64,000 nt of DNA from Escherichia coli (lineage in GTDB: Bacteria > Pseudomonadota > Gammaproteobacteria > Enterobacterales > Enterobacteriaceae): assembly GCF_016903815.1 (NCBI RefSeq), contig NZ_CP069973.1. One strand, written 5' to 3'. The notes under the pieces were generated by a model, which was not told the DNA's origin, did no database searches, and worked only from the letters and a program-made list of their open reading frames with translations. The number at the start of each line of letters is the position of its first letter. Position 1 is the first letter of the stretch. The translations under genes and the position numbers were made by a program. Shown piece by piece: positions 22,643 through 26,240 of this stretch.

Positions 22643-22764
22643 AGCAAACTCCAGATAAGTGCTTTTTTTATGATTACGCCACATCATAAAAAGAATAAAA
22701 AATATCGATTTATGTCGAGTCTATGCAAAAATGATATGGATTACCGGATTGCGAGAGAGCGCTA

Positions 22765-24507: not shown

Positions 24508-25926
24508 TCAGACGCCGATATTTCTCAACTTCTCGCCTGCCATCAGTTTGCGTTCGATATGTTCCAGGGTGACATTTTTGGTTTCCGGAATGAGCCAGAA
24601 AGTGATGCCCACAAACGCAATGTTCAGCGCAGTGTAGAGCCAGAACGTACCGGCAGCGCCAATGCTGTCGAGCAGCGTCAGGAAGGTCGCGCCGATAATC
24701 ATATTCGACACCCAGTTCGTGGTGGTCGAACAGGTAATACCGAAATCGCGGCATTTCAGCGGCTGAATTTCAGAGCACAGGATCCACACCACTGGCGCGG
24801 CGCTCATCGCATAACCGGCAATACACATCATCGTCATGCCAACAGAGAGCCATGACAGGCCACTGGAAGCCGTGCCGTTATCAAACTGCATCAGACAATA
24901 GCCCAGCACCAGAGTGCCTAACGCCATCACGCTGAAACCAATTTTCAGAGCCGGTTTACGCCCTGCTTTATCTACCGTAAACACCGCAATAAAGGTGGCG
25001 AACATAAAGGTCAGCCCTACGACCAGAGTCGCAATCATCTGTTGTTCTGTCGTCGTAAAGCCCGCCATTTTGAAGATACGTGGCGCGTAGTACATGATGA
25101 TGTTCATACCGGTAAACTGCTGCATCGCCTGCAACAACATACCGAGAAACACAGCACGACGGACGTTACGGTTGATCTTAAACAGTGCCCAACCGCCCTG
25201 TTTTAACTTCAGGCTTTCACGAATTTCGTTGAGTTCTTCTCGCGCTTTTTCCGACGTATCGCGCAGCATACGCAATACTTCTTCCGCCTCAATATGACGC
25301 CCCTTTTCCGCCAGCCAGCGCGGGCTATTTGGCAGGAAGACCACCAGAATAATCAGCAGGACTGCTGGTAAAGCAAGAACCCCCAACATTGCGCGCCAGT
25401 TACCGCTATAACTGAACGCTGTATCGGATAAAAACGCCAGCACGATGCCGAGTGTGACCATCAACTGGTACATACTGATCATCTTACCGCGAACGTTTTC
25501 ACTTGCCATTTCAGAAAGATACAGAGGAGCGGTGTAAGAGGCGATCCCGACAGCAATGCCCAGCACCACACGAGCGGCGATTAACATCTCTACGCTGGTC
25601 GCAAAAGCGGACCCTATCGAGCCGAGCACAAACAGGATGGCCCCCGCCATCAGGCTGTATTTACGCCCCAGGCGGAACGACAGCCAACCATTAAACAGCG
25701 CACCAATTGCTGCGCCGAGCATCATGCTACTGACCACCCATTCCTGCAAACGGCTGGTCAGCACAAAGTGATCGGTAATGAACGGCAACGCTCCGGCGAT
25801 TACGCCGATATCAAGACCAAATAACAATCCTGCGACCGCAGCAGCTACCGAAACAAACATATTCATACGCCGCGTATCCCGCAAAGAACGTGGCGTTAAA
25901 GCAGATTCCGTATTGATAGTAACCAT
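24508..25926 (-). CDS. araE: Arabinose:H+ symporter (MFS sugar transporter)
   Basis: Start [50 protein letters not shown] gives 472 aa. The upstream extension of the 515-aa track ORF is rejected. Confidence 0.92.
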
Positions 25927-26142
25927 TTTTTCCTGCCAGCAGAGAGTAAGACATAGTGAAAAAATACGTGAACAATTCACACAGGTGTCAGGTCGGAAAT
26001 AGCATAAATATGGATTAAATTGCTGCGACATGTCGTTATGTGATGGATATTCCAATTTTCAAATTAAGTTGAATTATTGAGATTATTATTAACCAACTAA
26101 TTTTAAAGAAGATAAAATTCATAAAGTTCATTAATTGATAAT

Positions 26143-26178
26143 TGATATGGATTATTTCATAACCATGATATGGATTAT
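26143..26178 (-). promoter_or_regulatory. Direct repeat of TATGGATTA-type half-sites upstream of araE (candidate AraC-binding site)
   Basis: gatatggattat occurs twice in direct orientation (about 26144 and 26167) upstream of the araE start. It resembles the AraC half-site core TATGGATAA. This has not been verified. Confidence 0.35.
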
Positions 26179-26194
26179 GATGATCTACAGGTAT

Positions 26195-26222
26195 AAAAAA
26201 CCCTGCCATGCGGCAGGGTCAT
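26195..26222 (-). terminator. Rho-independent terminator of kduD
   Basis: Hairpin ccctgccatgcggcaggg with a flanking A-run (a T-run on the minus-strand transcript), 3' of the kduD stop. Confidence 0.6.
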
Positions 26223-26240
26223 AAAAGTAAGAAGAATGAA

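Follow-up and report, generated by a model that had tools for sequence, protein, structure and literature searches.

The araE gene of Escherichia coli is preceded by two copies of a short sequence in direct orientation, and the question raised by this locus is what these copies do there. In a preliminary description of this DNA they were called an operator-like element and were tentatively likened to AraC half-sites. The stretch that we analyzed, which we call the window, is 64 kb long. In it araE, which codes for the arabinose:H+ symporter of 472 amino acids, occupies 24508-25926 on the minus strand, with its start taken from the RefSeq annotation of identical E. coli DNA, and kduD lies upstream of it at 26241-27002, so that the kduD-araE intergenic region is 314 bp long (25927-26240). 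The gene order in K-12 is lysR-ygeA-araE-kduD-kduI-yqeF, and the 361 bp around the repeat pair were matched in 5423 of 5426 complete E. coli genomes, the annotated neighbors being araE and kduD. The intrinsic terminator of kduD (26193-26220, minus strand), which consists of a hairpin at 26199-26220 and a T tail, is the upstream limit of the araE control region. A mechanical list of open reading frames begins araE at a TTG at 26055, but this is an artefact; the true start is the ATG (25926) that is annotated in K-12. The ORF extended in this way (24508-26055, minus strand) would run through the promoter, I1, I2, and the CRP site that are described below. The K-12 RefSeq record has no regulatory feature annotated at the repeat pair. 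Two other kinds of element were considered for this region and rejected, namely, a small RNA, for which Rfam gave one sub-threshold match of 15 bits that falls on the terminator hairpin, and a small ORF, because the tiny ORFs that run across the repeats are not conserved between genera.

A repeat search found exact copies of the 13-mer TGATATGGATTAT at 26143-26155 and 26166-26178, 23 bp apart from start to start, and thus the two direct copies about 23 bp apart that had been reported upstream of the araE start are there as reported; the 12-mer gatatggattat given at that time is contained in both 13-mers. Read in the direction of araE, either copy is ATAATCCATATCA and carries a perfect TCCATA. 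The pair lies 217-252 bp upstream of the araE ATG (25926, minus strand), just past the kduD terminator. In the distal copy (26166-26178, minus strand) TCCATA occupies 26169-26174 and a notional 17-bp half-site, GATCATCATAATCCATA, would span 26169-26185, while in the proximal copy (26143-26155, minus strand) the box is at 26146-26151 and the notional half-site, TTATGAAATAATCCATA, is at 26146-26162. A 10-mer core, ATATGGATTA, is found a third time at 26008-26017, in the I1 site of araE. In K-12 MG1655 the proximal copy has a single substitution, which is at its outer edge and leaves TCCATAT intact.

That a short repeat in an AT-rich region, with a consensus scan at chance level (see below), is a chance or neutral repeat or the remnant of a duplication and has no function would be one view of these copies. 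However, when the intergenic region was shuffled 3000 times with its dinucleotides preserved, only 0.23% of the shuffles had a direct repeat of 13 nt or more with its copies offset by 8-60 bp, which is a p of about 0.002 in the single sequence. Also, the 10 nt that follow the two copies do not match at any position (TTCATAACCA versus GATGATCTAC), and therefore the repeats are not a decaying tandem duplication; this origin is ruled out because there is no likeness beyond the 13-mer. Moreover, the boxes are invariant in about 30 genera in which the flanks and the 17 nt between the boxes have diverged. A functionless repeat is, on these grounds, scarcely credible.

The 17-bp half-site that AraC recognizes at araI1 is TAGCATTTTTATCCATA, and TCCATA is its strongly recognized box (PMC2241862, PMC11983282). 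TCCATA recruits AraC with high affinity and has been noted in araO2 (PMC11983282). The repeat pair is a direct repeat of such TCCATA boxes on the same strand as I1 and I2 of araE, but the first box of a half-site, (T)AGC, which should be found 7 bp upstream of TCCATA, is absent; the distal copy has GATC at this place and the proximal copy has TTAT. The likeness to AraC half-sites that had been tentatively suggested is partly supported: the TCCATA box is present and does not vary across genera, whereas the AGC half is missing from both copies. The 23-bp spacing of the pair is off the 21-bp register of adjacent two-half-site AraC sites, as the preliminary description had pointed out, and this unusual spacing is itself conserved (57 of 58 loci, see below). 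Scanning for the AraC motif, which had been suggested as a check, was done over the whole window with TAGC-N7-TCCATA and up to 2 mismatches. The scan recovered I1, but the distal 17-mer has 2 mismatches to this consensus, and there are 35 such matches in the 64-kb window compared to 41 expected, while the proximal copy has 3 mismatches. Since the distal copy is at chance level in the scan, motif scanning in a single sequence cannot settle the identity of the copies.

The canonical AraC half-sites of araE are closer to the gene. I1, CAGCAATTTAATCCATA, is at 26009-26025 on the minus strand and has 1 mismatch to TAGC-N7-TCCATA, which makes it the joint best match in the window (31587-31603 also has 1), and both its AGC and its TCCATA are conserved. 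The sequence of the ChIP primer JW073, CGCAGCAATTTAATCCAT, is that of araE I1 (PMC3738151). I2, TGCTATTTCCGACCTGA, is 21 bp downstream of I1 at 25988-26004 on the minus strand and overlaps the -35 hexamer CTGACA (25986-25991), a layout parallel to that of I2 and the -35 at pBAD; the sequence CCTGAC is invariant across the loci. By analogy with pBAD, the -10 would be GTATTT at 25962-25967 (minus strand), from which we infer a transcription start near 25954. The CRP site, TGGAATATCCATCACA, is at 26039-26054 on the minus strand, and from the start of its TCACA half to the I1 TCCATA there are 29 bp, a distance equal to that in pBAD, so that by analogy its center would be at -93.5, the position reported for CRP at pBAD (PMC7408454). 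When the K-12 araC-araB region was read in the same way, it had 29 bp from TCACA to I1 and 21 bp from I1 to I2, as at araE, and the core geometry of araE is, judged by sequence, base for base that of pBAD. This agrees with the literature, in which the AraC and CRP operators of araE are ordered and placed as in ParaBAD and the AraC operator adjoins the -35 (PMC2893085).

These results bear on the most literal understanding of the two upstream copies, namely, that they are the half-sites from which AraC activates araE and are equivalent to I1-I2. The copies are direct repeats with TCCATA upstream of araE, as such half-sites would be, but a full I1-I2 (25988-26025) with AGC boxes, a spacing of 21 bp, and overlap with the -35 is found 137 bp downstream of them, CRP is placed relative to it as in pBAD, and the repeats are not followed by a conserved -35 or -10. 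It had been suggested earlier that footprints placing the AraC site elsewhere would count against the copies, and the literature does place the primary AraC site of araE elsewhere, next to the -35, although an auxiliary site is still compatible with it. We thus consider it very improbable that the copies are the activation half-sites. Two variants of a promoter near the repeats were rejected as well. A second AraC-activated promoter downstream of the repeats does not have a conserved -35 or -10, and the weak matches on the + strand number 3 compared to 1.9 expected from shuffles. An inverted arrangement in the style of araFGH, with an antisense promoter toward kduD, would need a CRP site and a promoter, and no conserved ones are found from the distal box to the terminator.

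The evolutionary record of the copies was examined with the araE CDS as the query for retrieving related loci. The comparative set is made up of the best 80 of more than 589 araE loci with one genome per species, of which 58 core-Enterobacteriaceae loci with enough upstream sequence are informative; they cover about 30 genera, including Escherichia, Salmonella, Citrobacter, Klebsiella, Raoultella, Kluyvera, Enterobacter, Kosakonia, Lelliottia, Leclercia, Siccibacter, and Phytobacter. Within these best 80, two upstream TCCAT(A) boxes on the araE strand are present in all 58 informative loci, and the spacing from box to box is 23 bp in 57 of the 58 and 33 bp in one. The single locus with 33 bp (L019, a Raoultella MAG) has its boxes about 130-165 bp upstream of I1, with roughly one extra helical turn inserted between the two. 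Information content was computed on the 36 unique sequences of one length class, and it is 2.00 bits for the distal TCCATA, which is invariant, and 1.97 bits for the proximal TCCATA. The surroundings are much lower, with 0.61 bits in the 18 nt before the boxes, 0.81 in the 17 nt between them, and 0.71 in the 88-nt spacer that follows. Even the elements of the core promoter, at 1.79 bits for the CRP site, 1.47 for the I1 17-mer, and 1.23 for I2, are below both boxes. The boxes therefore rank among the most conserved intergenic sequence across genera, and with a perfect TCCATA in each copy in the orientation of I1, the term operator-like was well chosen. The consensus of the distal box is ..aaAT....att[A/G]TCCATAT and that of the proximal box is gAAaAATCCATA; at the position of the first box the consensus across genera is aAT. 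(distal) and aa.t (proximal) compared to the tAGC that is kept in I1. In the Klebsiella oxytoca group the distal copy upstream of araE is CAATTGTCCATAT, of which 13 nt are identical to K-12 araO2.

It was possible that the element belongs to kduD and not to araE. This is ruled out because the boxes persist where kduD is missing or far away: in Phytobacter there is no kduD upstream and in Superficieibacter kduD is 670 bp away (L057, L027). Since the boxes are kept where kduD is absent or displaced, the element goes with araE. In Franconibacter, Cedecea, Buttiauxella, and Mangrovibacter, whose upstream neighbor genes are other than kduD, one TCCATA/G alone, oriented in the same way, precedes I1 at a distance of 150-154 bp. 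The araE loci of Erwinia, Mixta, Rahnella, Rosenbergiella, and Pluralibacter among the best 80 of more than 589 have no upstream TCCATA box.

Some features of the compared upstream regions are recorded here for their own sake. In a Mixta sp. (L067) a tandem array of about eight CAGTCCG heptamers is found about 170-230 bp upstream of araE. The spacers of Enterobacter, Lelliottia, and Leclercia (L025, L028-L031, L037, L039-L040, L043-L044, and related loci) share a motif that E. coli lacks, TCATGAATGAC...ATCACA; it lies some 15-30 bp past the proximal box and may be the site of a lineage-specific regulator. The 6-bp spacer of the CRP site is an invariant TCCATC on the araE strand (26042-26047), which lies 33 bp upstream of the I1 TCCATA in 60 of 60 anchored loci (from the best 80 of more than 589) and is missing from the outgroup genera with the single upstream box. 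This TCCATC could be a fourth AraC-type box that overlaps the CRP site, and its conservation is inseparable from the constraint on the CRP site itself.

The distance from the boxes to I1 also appears to be constrained. In the window 160 bp separate the start of the distal TCCATA from that of the I1 TCCATA, which puts the distal box at about -220 from the inferred transcription start, and the TCCATA of the proximal box starts 137 bp upstream of that of I1, at about -197. Across the best 80 of more than 589 loci, the distance from the proximal box to I1 is 138 bp in 36 loci, 137 bp in 7, 139 bp in 2, 129 bp in 10, 128 bp in 1, and 127 bp in 1, so that it falls into two classes, 137-139 bp (45 loci) and 127-129 bp (12 loci), with no other values. 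Indels of more than 1 bp number three, one of 9 bp, one of about 11 bp, and the +10 bp between the boxes, and each is about one helical turn. If a turn is taken as 10.5 bp, the distance of the proximal box from I1 exceeds a whole number of turns by 0.5-3 bp in both classes, and that of araO2, 211 bp, exceeds it by 1 bp; this phase result rests on about three independent indel events in an intergenic region that is generally poor in indels, and it depends on the helical repeat that is assumed. The helical repeat in vivo is reportedly 11.1 bp (Lee and Schleif), and with this value none of the distances from box to I1 is integral. On the other side, the distal box starts 18 nt past the T run of the terminator, and of 57 loci (from the best 80 of more than 589) 42 keep this distance.

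The DNA that separates the proximal box from the CRP site (26056-26142) is an AT-rich spacer that is conserved in length but poorly in sequence. The spacers average 75% A+T compared to 44% for the araE coding sequence, and their mean ungapped pairwise identity is 0.47 compared to 0.31 for random sequence of equal composition. At 26090-26102 there is a motif resembling the IHF consensus, AATTAGTTGGTTA in the direction of araE, with one mismatch to WATCARNNNNTTR, roughly halfway from the distal box to I1. Of 57 spacers, 9 match the IHF consensus exactly compared to 1.4 in shuffles, and 8 of these matches share one aligned position, in sequences that are related and for a motif that is degenerate. 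The A/T tracts of the spacer have a periodicity of 9.5-10 bp, the significance of which is inflated by the kinship of the sequences. The IHF-like motif and the tract periodicity are suggestive and we take them as leads only, the role of IHF being putative.

A remote, perfect TCCATA box at a fixed distance from I1 is known from araO2, and araO2 was used as the positive control. The araC-araB region of K-12 was compared with those of Klebsiella pneumoniae, Enterobacter, Cronobacter, Buttiauxella, Mangrovibacter, and a Dryocola/Cedecea genome, which were retrieved via AraC homologues. In these seven genera araO2 keeps TTGTCCATAT, has no AGC box, is in the orientation of I1, and is 211-212 bp from the I1 TCCATA, while the DNA between araO2 and O1 is unalignable across the control genera. 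On this comparison the evolutionary signature of the araE boxes is that of araO2. In each, TCCATA(T) is perfect and the first box is degenerate, as in GAAACCAATTGTCCATA of K-12 araO2 and GATCATCATAATCCATA of the distal araE copy, both are in the orientation of I1, on the same strand and more than 100 bp upstream of it, and in both the distance to I1 varies little while the DNA between diverges. The CRP site is at an equal distance from I1 in the two systems and is inside the loop or would-be loop. There are also differences. araO2 is one box with a 211-bp loop and is located in the leader of a divergent regulator gene, whereas at araE there are two boxes, which would give loops of 137 or 160 bp here and of 127-162 bp across genera, and they are placed after a terminator between co-directional genes. 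Furthermore, araO2 is a proven half-site for looping, while looping and repression at araE are putative.

Compared to I1-I2 of araE itself, the repeats have the same TCCATA box on the same strand, and in E. coli the 10-mer TAATCCATAT is common to I1 and both repeats, but I1-I2 has an invariant AGC, an I2 at 21 bp, and abuts the -35, whereas the repeats are without an adjacent promoter. The other AraC sites that resemble the pair are araO1 (O1L-O1R) and araFG2, which are also pairs of half-sites in direct repeat upstream of an activation site. Both araO1 and araFG2 are dispensable for the basic activation geometry. Their half-sites in K-12 are TAACAAAAGTGTCTATA / CGGCAGAAAAGTCCACA for O1 and CAGCAGATTAATCCATA / TAGCCTGGAAATCCTTG for araFG2, with a 21-bp spacing and first boxes of the AGC type, unlike the araE pair with its 23 bp, two perfect TCCATA boxes, and no AGC. 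In fact, the spacing is 21 bp in araI, araO1, the araFG sites, and araE I1-I2, and the 23-bp spacing, as far as sequences tell, matches no characterized AraC site. The araFG sites also point away from their promoter, which the araE pair does not. All the half-sites at araBAD are in one direction and the four K-12 half-sites at araFGH are directed away from araF (L083 1330-1420). The O1R box, TCCACA, which is 53 bp upstream of I1 in K-12, is conserved as well in the araC-araB regions (L082, L085-L090).

The likeness to araO1 and araFG2 raises the possibility that the pair is an AraC site that one dimer binds in cis with no loop to I1; bound in this way, AraC might form a local reservoir, or a roadblock close behind the kduD terminator that insulates araE from upstream read-through. 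The two direct-repeat boxes have a strictly kept mutual spacing, which suggests that they are read jointly, AraC is known to accept altered half-site arrangements such as inverted repeats and an extra 11 bp (PMC2241862), araFGH has a second AraC site upstream, and the distal box is fixed 18 nt after the T run of the terminator. Against this, the characterized cis sites have 21 bp and at least one AGC box while the araE pair has 23 bp and none, the lone box of the outgroup genera, about 150 bp away, could not be a cis dimer site, and the apparent constraint on the distance to I1 would be left unexplained. For these reasons we regard a cis-bound dimer as the sole function of the pair as unlikely, though it deserves to be taken seriously, and cis binding and looping could coexist at the araE boxes.

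It is also conceivable that the boxes bind another protein that reads TCCATA(T) repeats, for example one of the AraC/XylS family, one of the response-regulator type, or a nucleoid protein, and that the likeness to AraC sites is a coincidence. Only 6-7 bp are conserved in each box, there is no AGC contact, a spacing of 23 bp is unlike that of AraC sites, and the 8-mer ATCCATAT has 8 copies outside araE compared to 1.6 in shuffles of the whole window and 3.3 per 64 kb in related loci. But the boxes are upstream of an AraC-activated promoter on the strand of I1 and I2, their match extends further both to I1 (TAATCCATAT, E. coli) and to araO2 (CAATTGTCCATAT, Klebsiella), their evolutionary signature matches that of araO2, and the remaining copies of ATCCATAT that were examined are in coding sequence or in unrelated regions. 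We know of no other regulator with a TCCATA(T) direct-repeat motif, and a protein other than AraC is in our judgment distinctly unlikely.

The other matches in the window were looked at separately. There are 11 copies of ATCCATAT in the window, where shuffles give 1.6 and related loci have 3.3 per 64 kb. A third exact copy of the 13-mer, which contains one ATCCATAT, is at 31778-31790, and the inverted pair at 31781/31808 is inside yqeH, of the LuxR family, by coordinate offset to K-12. A copy of the 13-mer with one mismatch is 20 bp upstream of the start of lysR. The coordinates of the matches, these included, are 31778-31815, 22732-22744, 1393-1405, 27236, 30169, 35102, and 8256. A wider regulon based on the 13-mer and 8-mer matches (1393, 22732, 31778, and others) was considered and rejected: those that were examined are mostly in coding sequence, their flanks are unrelated, and we take the matches as mostly due to chance. 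The other matches in the window are probably coding or chance.

Based on these comparisons we propose that the repeats are a conserved pair of AraC-type boxes that form a remote, O2-like auxiliary operator of araE, probably looping to I1, and we rate this explanation as somewhat better than even. It is from sequence that we infer AraC as the binder, the formation of a loop, and the repression or poising of araE. At araBAD, arabinose-free AraC bridges araO2 and araI1, which are 210-211 bp apart and on the same helical face, and arabinose shifts it to I1-I2 with the help of CAP, which is bound no more than about four turns from the loop anchor (PMC2241862, PMC7408454, PMC11983282). Adjacent half-sites are disfavored and well-separated ones favored by AraC that is free of arabinose (PMC2241862), and CAP is reported to open AraC loops (PMC7408454). 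The ingredients are present at araE, namely, a strong I1, a weak I2 on the -35, CRP upstream of I1, and O2-like boxes on the same strand. In the absence of arabinose, a rigid AraC dimer would keep one DNA-binding domain on the strong I1 (26009-26025), and its other domain would reach back to either the proximal or the distal box, at 137 or 160 bp. A small loop would then close across the CRP site and the bendable spacer, whose AT-richness would ease so small a loop, and AraC would be parked at araE, off I2 and the -35. With arabinose, and aided by CRP within the loop, the remote contact would be freed and AraC would shift to I1-I2 and activate transcription as at pBAD. Since the CRP site is 29 bp from I1, it would be about 3 turns away, inside the putative loop and within the range reported for loop opening by CAP (PMC7408454). 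The looping model fits the AraC ChIP signal that has been seen at araE in cells without arabinose, in an assay whose amplicon is centered on I1 and cannot resolve 150 bp (PMC3738151). A simple O2-like role does not account for the presence of two boxes. A more elaborate arrangement, which is speculative and which we think quite improbable, is a repression complex of four boxes, in which two AraC dimers free of arabinose would connect the upstream pair (23 bp) with the pair made up of I1 and TCCATC (33 bp), the spacer between the pairs being curved and possibly bent by IHF. Such a complex would withhold AraC from I2 and exclude CRP, and arabinose and cAMP-CRP would then compete with the loop and not merely add to activation.

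The AraC loop from araO2 to araI1 is the textbook example of how bacterial regulators act at a distance. The accessible literature describes looping for araC-araBAD only and treats araE as a simple CRP-AraC-RNAP promoter (PMC7408454, PMC2893085). Full-text searching found no description of an upstream AraC site or of looping at araE in the literature that it reached, and an earlier description is possible. The element is thus a very strongly conserved and apparently unannotated one in one of the best-studied bacterial regulons. We classify it, from its sequence features, as a putative O2-like auxiliary AraC operator, which is of a known kind and brings in no new principle. If this is true, the araE loci would be natural variants from which the rules for loop size and phase could be read, with loops of 127-162 bp compared to 211 bp, one or two remote boxes, and a spacing of 23 or 33 bp, and minimal araE promoter fragments without the region from about -190 to -225 may differ from the native promoter in behavior. 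The basal level of araE sets the all-or-none behavior of arabinose induction and of pBAD expression systems. An O2-like operator at araE, if it is one, would explain the presence of AraC at this promoter without arabinose and would extend the looping switch of the arabinose regulon to the transporter gene.
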